Part shown: in pieces, positions 38 to 9,749 of the stretch
Numbering within the stretch: position 1 is the stretch's first letter
Layout of the letters: each line of letters starts with the position of its first letter
Source of the DNA: Candidatus Eiseniibacteriota bacterium
GTDB taxonomy: Bacteria; Eisenbacteria; RBG-16-71-46; DASYSL01
Assembly: GCA_040005445.1 (NCBI GenBank)
Contig: JBDTYW010000001.1
Coordinates: forward strand, 1-25,546
Length of the DNA: 25,546 nucleotides
Direction of reading: 5' to 3'
Notes under the pieces: generated by a model
The model's input: only the letters and a program-made list of their open reading frames with translations
Databases searched by the model: none
Told to the model about the DNA's origin: nothing
Program-made: the position numbers and the translations under genes

Positions 38-3000
38 ATGAAGCGATTTTGGCCTGCGCTCGCGATGCTCGCGCTGGGCATCGTATCGGCGTCGTCGCCG
101 GCGAGCGCCCAGACGTGTTCGATCGGCGGGCACAACGAGACCAGTGAGAATTTTGCCGCTGCCTCCTGGGCGATTTCGAACATGTCGCCGGGCAGCGTTC
201 CCGGCGCCCTGCCCGGGACCCACCTCTTGATCAGCGAGGTCGCCCCACGGGGGGCGGGGACCGGCGCCGCTTCCGACTCGAGCGAGTACATCGAGATCTA
301 CAATCCGACGAGCCGCCCGGTCTCGCTCGACGACAAGTACATCAGCGACGACGCCAGCTATTACCGCATTGTCAACGGTCCCTACGCGGTCGCGAGCAAC
401 ACCGACTTCGCCCTGAGATTCCCCGCGGGGCTGTCGTTGCTCCCGGGTAGGACGCTCGTCCTGTGCGTGACCAAGGCCGGCTTCGCCGGTAGCGGCGCAT
501 CGGCGGGGTCGGCGCAGTACTTCCTCGAGATGAAGGACTCCAACGGCAGCGCGAGCGACGACATGGTGATCCTCACGCCGAACACAGTGTTCGCGCTGAG
601 CGGGGGCCTGCTCACGAACCCGAGCACGTCGAACGGCGAGTGGGTCGTGCTGTACTGCTGGAACGGGACCTCCGACCGCGTGTGCGACGTCGACTACGCG
701 AGCTGGGGCGCGAACTCGACGTCGAACGCGAAGATGGACAAGACGGGAGTCTCGATCGACGGCCCCGATCCGGGCGCGGCCACGTCCGCGTACAACGCGG
801 ACACGTCGGCGGCCTCGCAGAGCAATCTCGGCACGGCGGCGCTGGCCAAGCCCAACACCTACCAGCGCGTCGCTGCGGAGTCCGGCGAGGTCGCGCTCGG
901 CGGCAATGGCTGCCTCGGCCAGGCCGTGGTGGGCGCGGTCGACTGGGTGCCGGTGCGCGGCCCGACGGGCGAGCCCAATATCCGCTTTCACATCCGCTGG
1001 CAGAATCCGGATGGGGATGCGCCCTCGAGCCAGTTCAGCGGGCAGATGTCGTCGCAGATGTTCGGGGTGTTCCAACCGGACTATGGGCCGATCGGGCAGT
1101 TCACGGTTCCGCCGATGCAGCCCTCGAGCTTCTTCGACGTGTTCCTCGAAATCCCGCTGAGCCAGCTTCCCCCGCCGCCCCAGAAGATCCTGCCGGGCGG
1201 CGGCGCCGGCAAGCCGGGCACGGTCACGACCGCCGGCGGAGGCGCGCCGGTGGTGAACGTCGACTGCCCACCCGACACGAACTGGGCCGGCAACGTCGAC
1301 ATCGTCTGGTCCGGCAACGGGCAGGGCGGCCAGGTCAACAAGCACTATGGCGATCTGCTCACCTGCATCGGCGGTGCGCCGTCCTACATCCACGTGCGCG
1401 GCAGCAACTGTGCGGTGCCGATGCCGTGGACCGTCTCCGGCGTGTGTCCCGGCTACAGCGTCACGCTCGTGAACGAGGACCTGAGCCCCGCGCCGAACCC
1501 GGTGCCGGTGGGTTGGTCCGGCTATATCTGCGTCTCGGTGGCGCCGCCGGTGCCTTCCGGCACAAGCTGCTGCTTCGGGATCACGTTCATCTGCTCGGGC
1601 GCGGCCAGCACGATCGACATCTGCTCGACCGCGTGCGACTGCCAGCAGCACCCGCCGACGCTGAGCGCCGTCGACTGGACGACGAACGGCGGAATTGTCA
1701 CGTTCCACCAGCACTGGACGAATCCGAGTTCGAGCGATGCCTCGGACCCGGTGAGCGGCGACATGAGCTCGCAGGCGTTTGGCGTCTACCTGCCGAACTA
1801 CGGTCCGATCGGGCACTTCGACGTGCCGCCGATCGCCCCGTCGAGCTTCTTCGACGTGTTCTTCGACGTGCCGCTGTCGAGCCTGCCGCCGAACCCGGCG
1901 GTGACCGTGCCGGGCGGTCCGCCCGCGGCGGGCACCCCGTGCTACTTCGAAGGCCACTGGCACGGCAACGTCGACGTGAGCTGGAGCGGCCCCGGCGGAT
2001 CGGGGCAGGTCAACAAGCACTTCGGCGAGATGCCGGTGTGCCCGGGCGCGGCACCGACGACGCTGTTCGTCGAGACCTCGTGCGCCAGCACGACGGGTGC
2101 GACCTGGAGCATCGCGGGATTGTGCCCGGGCTTCAGCGCGACGCTGCTCAATACCGACAACACGCCGGCGCCGAACCCGGTGCCTCCGGGCTGGATCGGG
2201 CTGATCGCGGTCTCCGCCGCGCCCGGGACTCCGATCGGGGCCACGTGTTGCTTCACGGTCAACTTCGACTGCGGCGGCGTACCCGGCGTGATCGACGTGT
2301 GCGTGAAGGCCTGCGCCTGCACGCGGCCGCAACCCACGCTCGGGGTCCTCGACTGGACGCGGGTCGGCAGCGACATCCGCTTCCACATGCGGTGGGAGAA
2401 TCCGTCGAACTCGTCCGACACCGACCCGATCAATGGGCAGATGAACTCGCAGCCGTTCGGCGCGTTCGCTCCCGACTACGGGCCGATCGGGCAGTTCACG
2501 GTCCCGCCGATCGCGCCGTCGAGCTTCTTCGACGTCTTCTTCGACGTCGCGCTCAGCAGCCTGCCGCCGGAACCGCAGAAGATCCTGCCGGGCGGCGGAC
2601 CGAACGCGGTCGCGCCGAAGGGCGCTTCGACCGACTCGCAGTGCCCGCCCGACACGAGCTGGTCCGGCAATGTCGACATCAACTGGGCCGGGCCGGGAGC
2701 CGGAGGCCAGGTGAATCGGCACTTCACCGGGCTGCTGGTCAATCCGGGCGTCGGGTCGAGCCACGTGCACACGCTGATCTTCTGCAACGACCCGGTCGGG
2801 GCGTCGTGGACGATTGCCGGCCTGTGCCCGGGCTGGCACGCGACGCTGCTCAACGAGGACTTCACTCCGGCGCCGAACCCGGTTCCGCCCGGCTGGACGG
2901 GCTGGATCAGCGTCGCGGCGGATGCGGGCGTGCTTCCGGGCACGTCGTGCTGCTTCACCGTCACGTTCGTCTGCGACGGGCGGCCGGGCGTCATCGACGT

Positions 3001-3337
3001 CTGCGCCGAGGCCTGTTCCTGGGCCGTCAGCACCGACGTCGTCCCGAACCCGCAGGGGCTCGAGTTCGGCATCCTGCGCACCGCGCCGAATCCGTCGTCG
3101 GGCGACATGTCGATCGCGTTCGTGGTCCCGAAGAGCGATCACGTGTTCGTCGGCATCTACGATCTCGCCGGCCGGCGCGTGCGCACGCTCTATGCGGGCG
3201 CTGCGGAAGCCGGCGCCAAGTCGCTACGCTGGGACGGCCGCGGGGACGGCGGAATCCGCCTGTCGTCCGGCGCGTACTTCGTGAAGCTGGATGACGGCAT
3301 GCAGCAGACGACCCGGAAACTGTTGCTGACGAGGTAG
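38..3337 (+). CDS. Secreted protein: signal peptide, lamin-tail-domain-like N-terminus, three Cys-rich repeats, C-terminal FlgD Ig-like (T9SS-like) sorting domain
   Basis: GGAGGA RBS before the ATG; signal peptide [24 protein letters not shown]; LTD-like LLISEV...EYIEIYNPT...[10 protein letters not shown]; C-terminal PNPSS...[12 protein letters not shown]...WDGRGDGG...SGAYFVKL; GC-rich third codon positions. Confidence 0.9.
929..1642 (+). repeat. Intragenic protein repeat 1 (238 aa)
   Basis: Motif order VDW...FH.RW.NP...YGPIGQF.VPP...SSFFDVF...GNVDI.W...GQVNKH...CPG...PAPNPVP.GW...CCF...ID.C. Confidence 0.9.
1661..2320 (+). repeat. Intragenic protein repeat 2 (220 aa)
   Basis: Same motif order as repeat 1; also visible in the DNA (tcgagcttcttcgacgt; gcgccgaacccggt). 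Confidence 0.9.
2339..3022 (+). repeat. Intragenic protein repeat 3 (228 aa)
   Basis: Same motif order as repeats 1 and 2. Confidence 0.9.
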
Positions 3338-3367
3338 GCGGGTCGTTCGTCGTCGTCGGCCGCAAAT

Positions 3368-3397
3368 CGGGCCCCGGGGAGCATTCCTCGGGGCCCG
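3368..3397. terminator. GC-rich hairpin between convergent genes (probable bidirectional terminator)
   Basis: cgggccccgggga-gcat-tcctcggggcccg: 13-bp stem with one G-U pair, 30 nt after the stop at 3337; no strong U-tract. Confidence 0.55.
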
Positions 3398-3456
3398 TCG
3401 CATTGCGCGCGAACCGTTCCCGACCTGCGGTTGCTCGGGATCGACCCGCCGTCGAT

Positions 3457-3719: not shown

Positions 3720-3787
3720 GGGCGGCTCCTGTCGTCGGGGTGAACGGGTTTGCGTCTCGGCGCAAGCCTGGCGCAGGCGTCGCCCCG

Positions 3788-3813
3788 GATGCTTCGATGA
3801 CGGTCGAAGCATC
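3788..3813. promoter_or_regulatory. Palindromic operator, probably for the adjacent ArsR regulator
   Basis: Perfect inverted repeat GATGCTTCGA-N6-TCGAAGCATC between the divergent genes. Confidence 0.7.
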
Positions 3814-3829
3814 GGCGGCCGCATCGCTC

Positions 3830-3835
3830 TATAGT
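3830..3835 (+). promoter_or_regulatory. -10 element TATAGT of the arsR-like gene (leaderless transcript likely)
   Basis: TATAGT, 6 nt, then ATG at 3842; no Shine-Dalgarno sequence. Confidence 0.5.
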
Positions 3836-3841
3836 CATCCC

Positions 3842-4513
3842 ATGATTTCACGCCACCGATTGGCCGAGGTCGCCGCTCTGCTCGGGGATCCCGCGCGCGC
3901 GGGCATGGTGACCGCGTTGTGGGACGGCAGTGCGCGCCCCGCAGGGGAGCTCGCGCGCCTCGTCGGCGTCACGCCCGCGACCGCGAGCGCGCACCTCGCG
4001 AAGCTGGTCACCGGTGGCGTGCTGTGCGTCGAGCCACGCGGGCGTCACCGCTACTATCGCCTCGCCGGCCCGCCCGTCGCGCACGCGCTCGTGCCCGCGC
4101 CACCGGCTGCCCGCGCAAGAGCCACGGAGCCCGTGCCTCCGCTCCAACGCGCCCGCCTCTGCTATGACCACCTCGCCGGACAACTCGGAGTCGCGGTCAG
4201 CGACGGGCTGGTCTCCCGGCGCCTGCTCGTGCTCGAGGGCGGCGCGTATGCGCTGCCGCCGGCGGGGCGGCGCTGGTTCGAGAGGCTGGGCATCGAGGTG
4301 GGGGCGCTCGAGCGGGGTCGCCGCCCGCTGCTGCGCAGTTGCATTGACTGGACGGAGCGGCGGGAACATCTCGGGGGTGCGCTCGGCGCGGCGCTTGCGA
4401 CCCACCTGATCGAGCGCGATTGGCTGCGGAGGGAGCGTGGGGCGCGGTCGCTGCTCGTGACCACGGCCGGGCGGCGGGAACTCGCGCGCGCGCTCGGCCT
4501 GCGCATACCCTAG
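3842..4513 (+). CDS. ArsR/SmtB-family transcriptional regulator (CYDHLAG subtype)
   Basis: LGDPARAGMVTALWDG...GELARLVGVTPATASAHLAKL...GRHRYYRL; C-terminal CYDHLAG and CIDWTERREHLGG motifs. Start moved from 3740 to ATG 3842. Confidence 0.9.
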   Translation: MISRHRLAEVAALLGDPARAGMVTALWDGSARPAGELARLVGVTPATASAHLAKLVTGGVLCVEPRGRHRYYRLAGPPVAHALVPAPPAARARATEPVPPLQRARLCYDHLAGQLGVAVSDGLVSRRLLVLEGGAYALPPAGRRWFERLGIEVGALERGRRPLLRSCIDWTERREHLGGALGAALATHLIERDWLRRERGARSLLVTTAGRRELARALGLRIP

Positions 4514-5142
4514 GGCTGGATGTAGCCCTTGCGGATGGCGTAGCGGACGAGGCTCGCGGTCTCGTGGATGTCGAGCTTGGCGACGAGGCGGCGCCGGTGC
4601 GTCTCGACGGTCTTGACGCTGATCCCCAATTCGCCGGCGATCTCCTTCATCGACTGCCCCTCGGCGATCAGCTGCAGGACCTGGCGCTCCCGGCCACTCA
4701 GGCGCTCCGTCATCGCGGCCTCGTTCGCGCGAAACGCCCGCAGCGCCTCGCGCGAGACGCCCTCGCTCAGGTACAACGCCCCGCGCGACACCTCGTGGAT
4801 CGCCTGGACGAGGTCGGCCGAGGAGCGGGTCTTCAGTACGTAGCCGTTGACGCCCGCATAGAGCGCGTCGAGCACGTACTGTTCCTCGGTGTAGTTGGTC
4901 AGGATGATCGTCTTGGTGTCCGGCGACAGCTTCGCGATCTCGCGCGCCGCGTTCAGGCCGTTGAGGAGCGGCATCGCGAGATCGAGCACGGCCACGTCGG
5001 GACGGTGATGCTCGGTCAGTTTGACCGCCTGCCGGCCGTCGGCGGCCTCCCCGACCACCTCGAACTCCTCCTTCTCCAGCAAGCTCCGCAGGCCCTGGGC
5101 GAAGATCGGGTGGTCGTCGGCAATCAAAACGCGCAGGGACAT
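4510..5142 (-). CDS. NarL/FixJ-family response regulator (REC + LuxR HTH)
   Basis: IADDH...VLDLAMP (phospho-Asp)...YVLK; HTH LSGRERQVLQLIAEGQSMKEIA...KTVETHR. Confidence 0.95.
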   Translation of the reverse strand: MSLRVLIADDHPIFAQGLRSLLEKEEFEVVGEAADGRQAVKLTEHHRPDVAVLDLAMPLLNGLNAAREIAKLSPDTKTIILTNYTEEQYVLDALYAGVNGYVLKTRSSADLVQAIHEVSRGALYLSEGVSREALRAFRANEAAMTERLSGRERQVLQLIAEGQSMKEIAGELGISVKTVETHRRRLVAKLDIHETASLVRYAIRKGYIQP

Positions 5143-5144
5143 GG

Positions 5145-6104
5145 TCAGGCCTCCAGCGGAATCTGCATGAGCAACTCGGCGCCCTTGCCGGGCGCGGACG
5201 TGATCTGGAGCGTTCCCCGGAGGGAATCGAGCCTCTCCCGGATGCCGATGAGGCCGAGGCCGCGATCCCCGTCGAGCTCGATCGCCGTCTCGGGGTCGAA
5301 ACCGACGCCGTCGTCGATCACCCAGCAGGTGATCCCCAGCGGCTTGCGGACCACGCGCACCGTGATGTGCTTCGGATGGGCGTGCCTGATCGCGTTGTTC
5401 AGGGCCTCCTGGACCATGCGATAGAGCGCGGTCTCCACGGCCGGCGGGAGTCGCTCCTGCGGGGAGCCTTCGACCGCGATCGGCACGCCGGCCCGGTGCG
5501 AGACGCCCTTCGCGAGGAAGTCGAGGGCCGGGATCAGTCCGAGGTCGTCGAGGATCGTCGGCCTCAGCTCGTGAGCCAGGCGCCTCAACTGACGATCGAC
5601 CTCCCCGAGCAGGTCCCGGATATGGGACAGTTTTTCGGTGCCTTGCGGGGACAGGTCCCTCGCCAGTTCCTCGACGGCGAGGTGGGTCGAGGCAAGCAGC
5701 CCGCCGGCCTCTTCGTGCAGGGCGTGCGCGATGCGCTTCGCCTCGCCCTCGATACGATCGTTCATGTGGCGCAATGCGGCGATCGCTTCGCGATAGGAGC
5801 GGTGGCTCATCTCGAACGGCATCAGGCTCTCGACGAAGAATTCCTCGGCGCGCGAGATCAACGGCGGTTCGCCATTCGTGACTGACGGCGCGGGGATGAC
5901 CAGCTTCATCGCCTCGTGATGGAGCGCGGCGATGCCGAGCACGCCCGACCCGGCGGACAGGGCCTGACGGCCCAGCTCGTACGCCCTCTGCAACGCCGCC
6001 TCGCCCGGGTCCGCGAGATAGTCGCGAAGGGACTGCACGTACTTGCGCTGCAATTCGCTCAGGACCTTGCTCATGCGCGGGCTGCCGGACGTGTCTCGTC
6101 CCAT
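5145..6104 (-). CDS. Cytoplasmic histidine kinase: RsbU N-terminal-like domain + HisKA_3 + HATPase_c
   Basis: N-terminus Y..L..YL...GEAAL...H...EFFVESL aligns by eye to the RsbU N-domain; H-box IAHALHEE; N-box QEALNNAIRHA; G1 DDGVGF; G2 GLGLIGIRER; no TM segment. Start uncertain (6119, 6104 or 6074). Confidence 0.85.
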   Translation of the reverse strand: MGRDTSGSPRMSKVLSELQRKYVQSLRDYLADPGEAALQRAYELGRQALSAGSGVLGIAALHHEAMKLVIPAPSVTNGEPPLISRAEEFFVESLMPFEMSHRSYREAIAALRHMNDRIEGEAKRIAHALHEEAGGLLASTHLAVEELARDLSPQGTEKLSHIRDLLGEVDRQLRRLAHELRPTILDDLGLIPALDFLAKGVSHRAGVPIAVEGSPQERLPPAVETALYRMVQEALNNAIRHAHPKHITVRVVRKPLGITCWVIDDGVGFDPETAIELDGDRGLGLIGIRERLDSLRGTLQITSAPGKGAELLMQIPLEA

Positions 6105-6120
6105 CGAGTTTGTCCCCAAC

Positions 6121-6525
6121 TTACGTTCGCCACTTGCGCGCAGTCACGGTCGTCCCCTTGCCGATTTCCGAAATGACTTCCATCTGGTCCATCAATACGC
6201 GAACTCCCCGCAGACCCAGACTCGAAACCGCGTACCCCGCCTGTAGGACGAATGCGACATTGGGGATTCCCGGGCCGGAGTCGCGGGCGATCAATGTGAT
6301 CCCGGGCCGGTCGCCATTGCTGCTGGATTGGCTGAGGAGAATCTCCCCATTCCCGGCATAGTCGAGAATGTTGCGCGCCAACTCTGAAAGGGCCCCCGCG
6401 ATCATCGCCCGTTCGGCGAGCGGGAACCCCATCTCCGCGGCCATCGTTCGCGCAGCTTCGCGTGCCTTGATGACGTCCTGTTCGCTCGTAATGACCAAGC
6501 GGTCCTCGGATTTCGTAAGAGCCAG
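6121..6525 (-). CDS. rsbT: RsbT-like anti-sigma regulatory factor / serine kinase
   Basis: SEQDVIKAR...MGF...ALSELARNILDYAGNG...DSGPGI...LMD...GKGTTVTARKW follows RsbT along its length. Start uncertain (CTG 6525 or TTG 6498); the upstream part of the 6705 ORF looks non-coding. Confidence 0.85.
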   Translation of the reverse strand: MALTKSEDRLVITSEQDVIKAREAARTMAAEMGFPLAERAMIAGALSELARNILDYAGNGEILLSQSSSNGDRPGITLIARDSGPGIPNVAFVLQAGYAVSSLGLRGVRVLMDQMEVISEIGKGTTVTARKWRT

Positions 6526-7484
6526 TCCCGGACTTCCCGCGCGCAGGGCCGGGACAAGCCTCGATGTATGGGCGCCCACCGGAGAGGCGCATCCCAGGGC
6601 GACGATTCGCGCTCCTTCGCGCGAGAGCCAGCATAATCCCGACCCCCGGCCCCCGGACAAGGAAAACCTGCCGGGAACGGCTGAAGGGGGCGCGGCCCGC
6701 TCCAACCCGGTGGCCCCAGCCGCTTTCGGGAGCCGCCCAGGCTGGGTTCATTGTCGTTTGTTTCATGCGCCGACCTTCCGATACGGCCGCACTCGCCGGC
6801 TTGTGGCCGGTTGTGCGAGATCCTGTCACTCACGCGCGGACCGTGGATGATGTGATGGAACGGCGGCGCGCTGACGGGGAGCGCGACATCCAGGGCGAGT
6901 TCGAGACCTCGGTCGTGGAGAACCCGCAGTGTGCGCGCTCCCACGGCCAGATCCCGCACCGCGCGGGATACTCGACACGGATGTCGAAGTGGCCAGCACC
7001 TCTGACATCGTGCGCATACCCACGCGGCGCAAAGCTTGCGAGACCATCCTGACGAGGGCCAATGGATCACGAGATCATCAACGCACAATACATAAGCGAT
7101 GGAGTGCGACGCGCGCGATTGGGGCAATGCCTGATTATGCTGTCGGGTAATTCCGTACGATAGACCACGAAGAAGTGGCTGTGAGTCCGACTCGCGATCT
7201 TGTGCGCGATTGGCCTTGTGCTTCGCCGAACTCCGGAACACTGTCGGGAGAGTTCTCGCTCGATGCAGGAGGCGGTCCTTGAGATCCGGTCTCCGACTCG
7301 CAAGCGAGCCCACGAATCGCCTGACCAACCCGCCTCGGTTGGCCTGCGGTCGATCCCACCCGACCGCGCAGCGGCAACGATTCCGAAGGTTCCGAACATA
7401 GCTTCTATCTTTGCCTTCACGCCGACCGCGAGCAGTCGCGAGTCGTGCGACCGTCTTCGATCACCCCTGAACAGGAGCCCGTTC

Positions 7485-8207
7485 ATGCGTTACACAATGT
7501 CGATGGTCACGGCCGCGTTGCTCTCGGCTGTCGTTCTCCAGGGTTGTGGCGGCGACAACAAGGTTGCCCCCATCAACACGAACCCCGCCTCTGTTCCCCT
7601 CGGCGCGATCGTGTCCGGGAGCAACAGTTTCCGGGTGCTTGCGGGCTCCACGGTAGCGAACACCGGCAATACCACGGTTGCCGGCGATGTCGGCGTATGG
7701 GCGGGCGCGTCGGTCACCGGCTTCGGACCGGGGACGATGACCGGCAACGGTGGAGTTGCCCACTCGGCCGACGTCGCCGCGCAGTTGGCCCAGTCGGACC
7801 TGACGATTGCCTACAACAACGCGGCCGGTCGCGCCGCGGGCGCCGCAGTGGCCGGAAACATCGGAGGGCAGACGCTGACTCCGGGCGTGTACACCTCCGC
7901 GTCATCGCTCGAAATCTCCTCGGGGAATCTCACGCTCAACGGCAATTCGGCCGGAGTGTTCATCTTCCAGATCCCGAGCACGCTGACCGTGACCGCGGGT
8001 CGCCAGGTCATCCTGACCGGCGGCGCGCAGGCCTCGAACGTGTACTGGCAGGTCGGTAGCTCGGCCACGCTGGGCACGACCGCGAACTTCAGCGGAATCA
8101 TCCTCGCGAATTCGTCGATCACGCTGGCGACCGGCGCCACGCTGCACGGTCGCGCGCTCGCGCGAGTCGGCGGAGTCGCGCTGGATTCGAACATCGTCGG
8201 TCCGTAG
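7485..8207 (+). CDS. DUF3494 ice-binding-like protein, predicted lipoprotein
   Basis: AGGAG RBS at 7473-7477; lipobox VLQG-C; FRVLAGSTVANTG, GQTLTPGVY, VFIFQI, GGAQASNVYWQVGSSATLG, GRALA motifs. Confidence 0.92.
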   Translation: MRYTMSMVTAALLSAVVLQGCGGDNKVAPINTNPASVPLGAIVSGSNSFRVLAGSTVANTGNTTVAGDVGVWAGASVTGFGPGTMTGNGGVAHSADVAAQLAQSDLTIAYNNAAGRAAGAAVAGNIGGQTLTPGVYTSASSLEISSGNLTLNGNSAGVFIFQIPSTLTVTAGRQVILTGGAQASNVYWQVGSSATLGTTANFSGIILANSSITLATGATLHGRALARVGGVALDSNIVGP

Positions 8208-8244
8208 GGGACCGAATCGCCCGCAAGGGGCGTCGGACGATCAG

Positions 8245-8276
8245 CGGTGAACGCGGTCGCGGACCGTCGTTCACCG
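8245..8276. terminator. Intrinsic terminator-like hairpin between convergent genes
   Basis: cggtgaacg-cggtc-gcg-gaccg-t-cgttcaccg followed by tttccgttt; overlaps the SDR stop codon. Confidence 0.65.
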
Positions 8277-9749
8277 TTTCCGTTTCACGGCGAGGGCGCG
8301 CCGCGCGATCCCGTCGATCAGCCCGCTGAAGATCAGGGCGTGCAGTGGGTACAGCGCGTACCAGTAGAGCCAGCCGAGCAGGCCGCGCGGCGCGAAGAAC
8401 GCACTCTGCGAGAGCAGCGTCCGCCCGTCCTCGCCGGAGGCGGCCTCGAACTGCAGCCAGGCCTCGCCGGGCAGCTTCATCTCCGCGCGCAGGCGGATCA
8501 TGCGCTCCGGCTCCACCGCCTCCACTCGCCAGAAATCGAGCGCATCGCCGACCCGCAGGCGATCGGCGTCGCGACGGCCGCGGCGCAGCCCGACGCCCCC
8601 CATCAGCCGATCGAGCCACCCCCGCACCTTCCACGCCCAGTTCATGTAGAACCAACCGCGTTCGCCCCCCAGGCCGGTGAACACCCCGTACGCGGTCCCA
8701 GCCGGCACGTCGATCACGCGCTGGCGCCGCTCGCGGATCATGCCCTCCTGGTTCGTCAGCACGACTGCCGGCATGTCGCCCTGCGTCGTGCTCAAGGCGT
8801 CGCTCCAGGCGGTCTCGACGTTGCTCGCCTGCAACTGCGCGAGCGTGCGTTCGACCGACGTGCGATAGGACACGGGCCGGATCTCGGGGAAGAGCTCGCG
8901 GGCGGCGGGATCGCGCACGATGTTCTCGTTGCGCAGGCCCTCGACCAGCGGGCGCGCGATGGCCGCGGGGATGGGCGTGACGATGTTTACCCAGTACGAC
9001 GACAGGCGCGGCGTGAGCACCGGGACCGGGACCATCCACCGCTTGAGCCCGCGCACCTCGGCGTAGGTCATCATCATCTCGCCGTAGGTGACGATCTCCG
9101 AACCGCCGATCTCGACGATGCGGCTGCTGCTTTGGGGGACGGCGAGCGCCGCAGTGAGGTACTCGAGCACCTCGCGAATGCCGATCGGCTGGGTGCGCGT
9201 ATACACCCAGCGCGGGCAGACCATGATCGGCACGCGCTCGGTCAGGTAGCGGATCATCTCGAACGACACGCTGCCCGAGCCGACGATGACGCCTGCGCGG
9301 AATTCGGTGACGGGCACGCCGGCGCTGCGCAGCGCATCGCCGGTCTGCTGCCGCGAACGCAGGTGTTCCGAGAGCGTGGGAGAGGCTTCGGCAAGTCCGC
9401 CGAGATAGAGAATTCGCTCCACCCCGGCGGCACGCGCGGTGGCGCCGAACGTCTCGGCAGCGGCGAGGTCGCGTCGATGGAAGTCCGACCCGCTTCCGAG
9501 GCTGTGGACGAGGTAGTAGGCGGCCCACACGCCCGGCATGGCCGGCGCGAGGCTTGCGGCGTCGAGCACGTCGCCGGTCACGATCTCGACGGACTCGTGC
9601 CAGCGTCGTCCCTCCAGTCGCGAGGGATCGCGCACCAGGCAGCGCACGCGGTAGCCGAGGTCGAGCAGGCGGGGGACCAACCTGCCGCCGATGTAGCCGG
9701 TGGCGCCGGTCACGAGGACCAGGCCGCGGTCCGCGGCTTTTGCGGGCAT
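8271..9749 (-). CDS. Atypical SDR / NAD(P)-binding oxidoreductase with C-terminal DUF2867 (YbjT-like)
   Basis: AAAGGAGG RBS; VTGATGYIGG Rossmann motif; AYYLVHS; FRAGVIVGSGS.SFE; C-terminal W..RG..DR..GG.GL...DFWRV...LRAEMKLPG.AWL. Confidence 0.92.
   Translation of the reverse strand: MPAKAADRGLVLVTGATGYIGGRLVPRLLDLGYRVRCLVRDPSRLEGRRWHESVEIVTGDVLDAASLAPAMPGVWAAYYLVHSLGSGSDFHRRDLAAAETFGATARAAGVERILYLGGLAEASPTLSEHLRSRQQTGDALRSAGVPVTEFRAGVIVGSGSVSFEMIRYLTERVPIMVCPRWVYTRTQPIGIREVLEYLTAALAVPQSSSRIVEIGGSEIVTYGEMMMTYAEVRGLKRWMVPVPVLTPRLSSYWVNIVTPIPAAIARPLVEGLRNENIVRDPAARELFPEIRPVSYRTSVERTLAQLQASNVETAWSDALSTTQGDMPAVVLTNQEGMIRERRQRVIDVPAGTAYGVFTGLGGERGWFYMNWAWKVRGWLDRLMGGVGLRRGRRDADRLRVGDALDFWRVEAVEPERMIRLRAEMKLPGEAWLQFEAASGEDGRTLLSQSAFFAPRGLLGWLYWYALYPLHALIFSGLIDGIARRALAVKRKR

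Follow-up and report, generated by a model that had tools for sequence, protein, structure and literature searches.

Modules that carry the four genes rsbR, rsbS, rsbT and rsbX are widespread (Heinz et al. 2022; PMC9237108), and in some Proteobacteria a protein headed by an RsbU_N-like domain is encoded downstream of rsbX, an arrangement that, in the words of those authors, "strongly suggests" that this protein is the recipient of RsbT (PMC9237108). In the work of Baral et al. 2025, an RsbU_N-NreB kinase was modelled as a dimer with AlphaFold2, and RsbT was proposed to make the linker rigid and so to dimerise the effector domains (PMC12143880). The action of RsbT on an RsbU_N histidine kinase is already a published hypothesis for modules of six genes, in which rsbRSTX is followed by a kinase and a response regulator (PMC9237108, PMC12143880). 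Responses to RsbT that have been demonstrated so far comprise one PP2C phosphatase and one GGDEF enzyme. The latter belongs to the MtR-MtS-MtT-MtX-MtG system of Moorella thermoacetica (Quin et al. 2012, as cited in PMC12143880), which by that account is the only experimentally tested output other than sigma-B. Our analysis of a 25,546-nucleotide (nt) stretch of contig JBDTYW010000001.1 (GCA_040005445.1, Candidatus Eiseniibacteriota bacterium), hereafter the window, places beside these systems a locus in which an rsbT-like gene, an RsbU_N histidine kinase gene and a NarL/LuxR-type regulator gene stand together in the absence of rsbR, rsbS and rsbX. We consider it probable that this three-gene operon, hereafter the trio, derives from the six-gene module through loss of the sensor/scaffold genes rsbR and rsbS and of the reset phosphatase gene rsbX, and that its RsbT activates the kinase by binding to it. 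The trio represents the smallest natural version of RsbT-to-kinase wiring, with three soluble proteins, no cage and no reset phosphatase. An initial annotation of this DNA, made from the sequence alone, had called the system poorly described, which is an overstatement, since RsbU_N kinases downstream of rsbRSTX are known from comparative genomics and one AlphaFold model has been published (PMC9237108, PMC12143880); for the version without stressosome genes, our literature search found no paper, subscription journals being outside its scope.

The likeness of the trio to the rsbRSTX modules with an RsbU_N two-component system, the 'Vibrio-type' or minimal stressosome loci (PMC9237108, PMC12143880), is extensive: the same RsbT, a kinase of approximately 309-320 residues (aa), a NarL-type regulator of 210 aa and the same gene order. 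The window kinase is 42-54% identical to the kinases of those modules and its clade nests among their loci. The differences are that rsbR, rsbS and rsbX are missing, that rsbT abuts the kinase gene rather than being separated from it by rsbX, and that the trio RsbT is relatively less constrained and, in the lineage of the window, has a shortened ATP lid. As in the RsbT-RsbU pair of B. subtilis, a GHKL-type RsbT adjoins an RsbU_N protein in which the equivalent of E24 is invariant and a helical linker leads to the effector. The effector in the window, however, is a histidine kinase where B. subtilis has a PP2C phosphatase, the RsbV/RsbW/sigma-B cascade is missing, as are RsbR, RsbS and RsbX, and the Y28 position is not conserved. 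The Moorella system, as it is described in PMC12143880, resembles the wiring proposed for the trio in that an RsbT homolog controls a non-phosphatase enzyme through RsbU_N, and differs in that its output is a GGDEF diguanylate cyclase and stressosome genes are present.

The three genes of the trio lie on the minus strand, co-directional and tightly packed, in the order rsbT-like gene (6121..6498), histidine kinase gene (5145..6074) and regulator gene (4510..5142). The kinase follows rsbT by 16 nt or 46 nt, depending on whether it starts at ATG 6104 or ATG 6074, and the regulator follows the kinase by 2 nt; the open reading frames (ORFs) at 4510-5142, 5145-6119 and 6121-6498 thus agree with the packing that the initial annotation had described (gaps of 16 nt or less, and 2 nt). 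The rsbT-like gene encodes a GHKL protein of 125 aa that matches Pfam HATPase_c_2 with 28.9 bits (cut-off 27.4) and also HATPase_c, and that is 42-51% identical by tblastn to RsbT of rsbR-rsbS-rsbT-rsbX operons, including those of Pfam-verified six-gene loci. Joint Genome Institute (JGI) annotation names its homologs 'serine/threonine-protein kinase RsbT', and a single-sequence search of the PDB with the window RsbT returned SpoIIAB alone, weakly. The 210-aa product of the last gene is a NarL/FixJ-type response regulator with Pfam matches to Response_reg (104.3 bits) and to the GerE/LuxR helix-turn-helix (68.9 bits). Its acidic pocket is readable, with DD at residues 9-10 and the Asp of VAVLDLAMP, and its best NCBIfam matches are MctR, UvrY/GacA and NarL, all below the equivalog cut-offs.

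The kinase is a soluble protein of 309 aa (319 aa with ATG 6104) composed of RsbU_N, a helical linker, HisKA_3 (the dimerisation and histidine phosphotransfer domain, DHp) and HATPase_c, an architecture that emerges from Pfam, from its homologs (6130, mostly of 309 aa with the same domains) and from an AlphaFold2 model. Pfam RsbU_N (PF08673) matches residues 26-104 of the kinase ORF with 34.6 bits in hmmscan, above the cut-off of 25.5, and with 37.6 bits in the genome search, while HATPase_c reaches 53.7 bits. HisKA_3 scores 21.9 bits on the window kinase, just under its cut-off of 24, and is above that cut-off in the homologs of loci L016 and L017 (37.2 and 34.9 bits). The Pfam scan detected no other sensor domain and no transmembrane domain in the kinase, and the RsbU_N region accordingly stands as its sole input region, as had been claimed initially. 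The domain occupies residues 1-100 (5775..6074, minus strand) and bears the family motif PFEMSHR. A single-sequence PDB search with this region gave no match; a profile of 28 kinase N-domains matches N-RsbU of B. subtilis (2J70, 2J6Z, 1W53 and 2J6Y; E 2e-6 to 5e-5, and 2e-6 to 7e-6 for the first three). The Glu of the GEAAL motif, E25 of the 309-aa protein, aligns with RsbU E24 (PDB 2J70/1W53), a correspondence already proposed from the sequence, and is invariant in 28/28 and 42/42 aligned homologs. E24 is one of the RsbU residues implicated in RsbT binding, together with Y28, I74 and I78 (PMC12143880). The position of I74 is taken by Val or Leu; at that of I78 the trio clade has Met, and most six-gene loci have Ser.

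His120, the predicted phospho-acceptor in the H-box RIAHALHEE (codon 5715..5717, minus strand), is invariant in all 42 aligned kinases, and N227, D254/G256/G258 and G272-G277 are invariant or nearly so; with its H, N, G1 and G2 boxes thus conserved, the kinase looks catalytically competent from its sequence. The AlphaFold2 model, built on 42 homologs, has a mean predicted local distance difference test (pLDDT) score of 82.6 and places helices at residues 3-21, 25-40 and 45-59, followed by one continuous helix of 67 residues (72-138) that bears His120. This helix joins the fourth RsbU_N helix to the DHp helix, after which the model places DHp helix 2 and then the catalytic domain. The published RsbU_N-NreB kinase has the same three-helix plus long-helix architecture (PMC12143880). 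The best solved folds for the model are DesK and VraS, both HisKA_3-type kinases (Foldseek E 1e-10 for DesK). DesK-DesR of B. subtilis therefore offers the best solved match for the DHp and catalytic core together with a regulator of the same class, although DesK senses through transmembrane helices whereas the window kinase is soluble and has RsbU_N as its only input domain.

To place this arrangement among its relatives, PF08673 was searched in 201 genomes of the window's phylum and in 401 Acidobacteriota genomes, in which matches are sparse (16/201 and 15/401 genomes, respectively). A search with the single kinase sequence reached 6 close relatives, and among named relatives of the window a Candidatus Eisenbacteria metagenome-assembled genome (MAG) is the nearest. 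Loci were classified by tblastn with the window proteins and with RsbR, RsbS, RsbT and RsbX of the Pfam-verified six-gene locus L017. The six-gene form, rsbR-rsbS-rsbT-rsbX-kinase-regulator, was found at 18 loci and at three more that are cut off by contig ends, and the same order recurs on three metagenomic or MAG contigs (L047, L048 and L049), two of them labelled Binatia and Nitrospirales; the six-gene module is widespread, with more than 20 loci in several phyla. The three-gene form was found at 13 loci that agree in gene content and gene order, rsbT lying 9-109 nt upstream of the kinase gene and no STAS or PP2C gene at the locus. Its carriers are the window, the genus-mate G118, G038, five Acidobacteriota/Polarisedimenticolia genomes, G489 and four more contigs (trio-type locus labels: the window, L007, L008, L009, L016, L031, L035, L038, L050, L054 and the contigs of P0003 and P0004). 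The trio contig of G118 begins inside rsbT. At three further loci an RsbU_N kinase has no adjacent rsbT. Every six-gene locus, but none of the trio loci, gave a tblastn match to RsbX.

A maximum-likelihood tree of 31 kinases suggests the direction in which these forms are related. The kinases of the window, of G118 and of six Acidobacteriota trios form a clade with one kinase that has no adjacent rsbT (support 99/94). The sister of this clade is a six-gene locus (97/96), and the two are nested inside the six-gene loci. The G038 kinase nests apart, among six-gene loci of its own order, and locus L016 would represent a second, independent loss. The tree, which is midpoint-rooted so that the direction of change is inferred, requires at least two changes of type, and its simplest reading is that rsbR, rsbS and rsbX were lost at least twice. 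The window's clade is common to two phyla and is present in 2/6 genomes of the window's genus, and the region is of lower guanine-cytosine (GC) content (0.63-0.65 over 6499-7484, against 0.68-0.72 in the flanks and approximately 68% in the window as a whole), a combination that fits lateral transfer.

Several loci in this survey have features of their own. On the contigs of the two nearest metagenomic relatives after G118 (P0003 and P0004), rsbT is immediately preceded, on its own strand, by a cNMP_binding/Crp-type gene; for this reason the window was searched in six frames for cNMP_binding, and no match was found. Between L017 of the window's phylum (RsbR 2536-3429) and L029-L042 of Acidobacteriota, RsbR is 81-87% and RsbS 72-77% identical, compared with approximately 47-59% for the kinase, a difference that points either to very strong constraint acting on the core of the stressosome or to a recent transfer that involved the operon's 5' part. 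At L047 a second RsbU_N kinase, of the HisKA type (7668-8699, 343 aa), is encoded after the six-gene module, and one RsbT may there have two kinase targets. The trio kinase of G489 (L038:9310-10238) matches the query in three pieces in different frames and may be frameshifted or misassembled. In the six-gene-type locus of G465 (L034:8829-9938), RsbU_N heads a 369-aa protein that is dissimilar to the catalytic half of the window kinase and would be a different output domain.

The contrast between the six-gene and the three-gene form provides a natural experiment that could separate the parts of RsbT needed for the cage from those needed for the output. RsbT is the more conserved of the two proteins in 120/120 pairs from six-gene loci (mean identity 61% against 47% for the kinase), whereas in trio loci it is less conserved in 20/21 pairs (62% against 68%), the pairs in these counts not being independent. 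The ratio of non-synonymous to synonymous substitution rates (dN/dS) in trio loci is 0.22-0.39 for RsbT and 0.21-0.34 for the kinase; trio RsbT is retained under purifying selection and freed of part of its constraints. Judged from these sequences, the relaxation fits loss of the interfaces with RsbR and RsbS, and perhaps of kinase activity as well, with the RsbU_N interface kept. In B. subtilis, Kang and colleagues are said to have found in 1998 that the kinase activity of RsbT is not needed for activation of RsbU. The reversal of constraint is accompanied by stepwise remodelling of the lid and G2 region, which reads GYSTSGxLGLGLPGV in six-gene loci, SYSVAGGLGLGLRGV in Acidobacteriota trios and GYAVS---SLGLRGV in the window. 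In the window's lineage this region is three residues shorter than in every six-gene RsbT, with one Gly-x-Gly unit gone. An assembly error is ruled out as the source of the deletion, which is common to six independent relatives (P0122-P0127) that are 61-80% identical to the window RsbT.

A second recurrent feature of the trio is its neighbourhood. Divergent from rsbT in the window is a gene for an ice-binding-like lipoprotein (7485..8207, plus strand; DUF3494, PF11999, Pfam Ice_binding 193.6 bits). In the 12 genomes that hold trio-type or rsbT-less RsbU_N kinases, PF11999 gave 10 matches in 8 genomes, 7 of which lie within 10 kb of the RsbU_N kinase gene (among them those at L004/L008, L007, L031, L040 and L041). 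At least four arrangements occur: divergent upstream of rsbT, as next gene downstream with an OmpA-type gene behind it, on the downstream side but on the opposite strand, and 4-6 kb away. The gene is the next downstream of the trio at L004/L008 and on the P0004 metagenomic contig. None was seen within about 8 kb of six-gene loci. As the gene is usually single-copy in a genome of 3-5 Mb, this linkage is far beyond chance, and its repetition makes the lipoprotein gene a concrete candidate target; we regard it, from gene neighbourhood, as a likely target of the regulator. In two lineages an OmpA/OprF-type gene follows the ice-binding-like gene. A link to cold habitats finds no support, the sequencing runs that contain this DNA being labelled as root, soil and rhizosphere metagenomes. 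For G118, adjacency of an ice-binding-like gene to the trio could not be demonstrated, as the contigs break inside rsbT and the other contig has an M48 peptidase gene upstream.

Taken by analogy with RsbT-RsbU of B. subtilis, the trio could operate as follows. RsbT would bind the dimeric RsbU_N domain together with the beginning of the long helix that runs on into the DHp helix, and its binding would stabilise the kinase-active dimer. His120 would then be autophosphorylated and the phosphoryl group passed to the receiver Asp of the regulator, which in its phosphorylated form would turn on its targets, the ice-binding-like lipoprotein gene likely among them. Because there is no RsbR/RsbS cage and no reset by RsbX, RsbT cannot act as a released partner; it would have to be either an activating subunit that is permanently in place, with kinase activity set by how much of it is present, or a switch under some other control, for example that of its nucleotide state. 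The proposal of the initial annotation that RsbT docks on the RsbU_N domain of the kinase, with a His-Asp relay to a LuxR-type regulator as output and neither PP2C phosphatase nor sigma factor, gains support from homology, the invariant E24 equivalent, strict synteny and the single helix predicted by the model. The trio lets two questions be asked, namely whether RsbT on RsbU_N switches a histidine kinase and what controls an RsbT that is not sequestered.

Some observations weigh against this reading. The N-box (ELxRN) and G1 (DxGPGI) motifs are invariant in trio-type RsbT, the window protein retaining them as SELARN and DSGPGI, and this conservation suggests a continuing role for nucleotide binding, and perhaps for a substrate, that the picture of a simple activating subunit leaves unexplained. 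The Y28-equivalent position of the RsbU_N domain is not conserved (Gln29 in the window, variable across the family), and a Y28I change in B. subtilis RsbU abolishes RsbT binding. The window's genome is 53% complete, such that rsbR and rsbS could sit on missing contigs, and in G204, one of the trio genomes, a complete six-gene module is present in addition at a separate locus; sequestration of RsbT in trans is possible in some hosts. Finally, no DNA motif is common to the regions upstream of rsbT and of the ice-binding-like genes (15 sequences; k-mer sharing no better than in shuffles), and the proposed target therefore comes from neighbourhood.

The invariant N-box and G1 motifs are what would be expected if RsbT were still a Ser/Thr kinase and passed the signal on by phosphorylation rather than by binding alone, its substrate being either of its two operon partners or else a single-domain STAS protein encoded at an unlinked site. 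A candidate for the last is encoded in the window's genome, a STAS protein of 118 aa that has Ser/Thr at the usual position (INSTALG). Its gene, however, lies in an unrelated context between TPR and MotA/ExbB-type genes that is found across the phylum in genomes with and without the trio, RsbU_N is a binding domain and not a known RsbT substrate, and the lid and G2 region has lost three residues in the window's lineage, including one Gly-x-Gly unit. We therefore regard continued Ser/Thr kinase function as doubtful.

The initial annotation had treated the locus as a rewired stressosome output, and in a true output of this kind RsbR and RsbS encoded elsewhere would hold RsbT and release it onto the kinase under stress. 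The six-gene form is common and, on the midpoint-rooted tree, ancestral, and both the complete module in G204 and the incompleteness of the window's genome leave room for such genes. At the locus itself they are missing: Pfam and the ORFs place no STAS gene near the trio in the window and no rsbR, rsbS or rsbX. RsbR is a sensitive probe because of its 81-87% identity between phyla, and an RsbR query found no match in 8/9 trio genomes, including G118 (same genus, 91% complete) and G038 (98% complete). The single STAS (PF01740) match in the whole of G118, the pair of STAS matches in G201, which adjoins an RsbW-like gene, and the remaining STAS sites of G202 and G038, which have no similarity to RsbR or RsbS, do not alter this picture. 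In the window's genome, at 53% completeness, the RsbR query likewise found none, and there are two STAS matches, one SulP-like and the other the 118-aa gene described above, the only small STAS gene found there, which has no rsbR-like neighbour. The faster divergence of trio RsbT relative to the kinase, opposite to that in six-gene loci, also speaks against a protein held in a cage. With no rsbR, rsbS or rsbX at the locus and RsbR not found in G118 and seven other trio genomes, the trio appears to be what remains after loss of the stressosome genes and not a rewired stressosome, and we consider release from an unlinked stressosome unlikely.

The docking evidence applies equally to an RsbT that, like an anti-kinase, inhibits the kinase or sets it to a phosphatase mode. 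Kinases of the HisKA_3 class such as DesK, the best fold match here, toggle between kinase and phosphatase states through the helix that enters the DHp domain. The two RsbT-type proteins that have been tested nevertheless both activate their RsbU_N enzymes, namely B. subtilis RsbU and Moorella MtG (the latter as cited in PMC12143880), and we judge inhibition to be improbable. That rsbT is a decaying, functionless remnant beside a kinase that works alone is very improbable: the shortened lid, the TTG start codon, the faster evolution of RsbT than of the kinase in trio loci and a same-clade kinase without adjacent rsbT (L043) could be taken this way, but the rsbT reading frame is intact in all trio loci of two phyla, its dN/dS of 0.22-0.39 is kinase-like, relatives that are 61-80% identical have kept the lid deletion too, and gene order and short spacing are kept.

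An activating RsbT that has left the stressosome invites a bolder and, at present, rather doubtful extension. RsbT might have turned into an autonomous regulatory subunit of the kinase, a pseudokinase-like switch with a remodelled lid that is driven by nucleotide state or abundance, and the resulting minimal pathway of three proteins might control the ice-binding-like surface lipoprotein, and in some lineages the adjacent OmpA-type protein, as part of an envelope or cold-related response.

The gene boundaries given above follow from the following considerations. The start of rsbT is most likely TTG 6498, because a GAGGA that is a likely ribosome-binding site, as read from the sequence (6503..6507, minus strand), lies 5 nt upstream and because the resulting N-terminus aligns with those of the homologs; the in-frame CTG 6525, with which the initial annotation began the gene, is less likely. 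The kinase ORF spans 5145-6119, within which the majority of homologs, at 309 aa, points to ATG 6074 and one 319-aa relative fits ATG 6104. A promoter scan of the locus found no sigma-70-like promoter. Only two terminator-like matches were found, both inside the kinase gene and at the background rate, and none above background between the genes. An ArsR/HTH_20-type regulator gene (3740-4513, plus strand) converges on the response regulator gene, their ends overlapping by 4 nt, and the same neighbour occurs in G118.

Between rsbT and the divergent ice-binding-like gene lies a stretch of approximately 990 nt (6499..7484) without a detectable gene. Pfam scans of all ORFs in it gave no match, which rejects a decayed rsbR, rsbS or other gene at this position, and an Rfam search of 6300-7700 gave no structured-RNA match at E up to 1. 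Within it, an 88-nt stretch (6951-7038), single-copy in the window's genome and without an Rfam match, folds on the minus strand into a long hairpin of -55.5 kcal/mol (z -3.0, 0/200 shuffles as good). This stretch is 91% identical to L051:2134-2219 of G118, where it adjoins the M48 peptidase gene, compared with 81-84% for the coding flanks, and the hairpin appears to be conserved between the two genomes.

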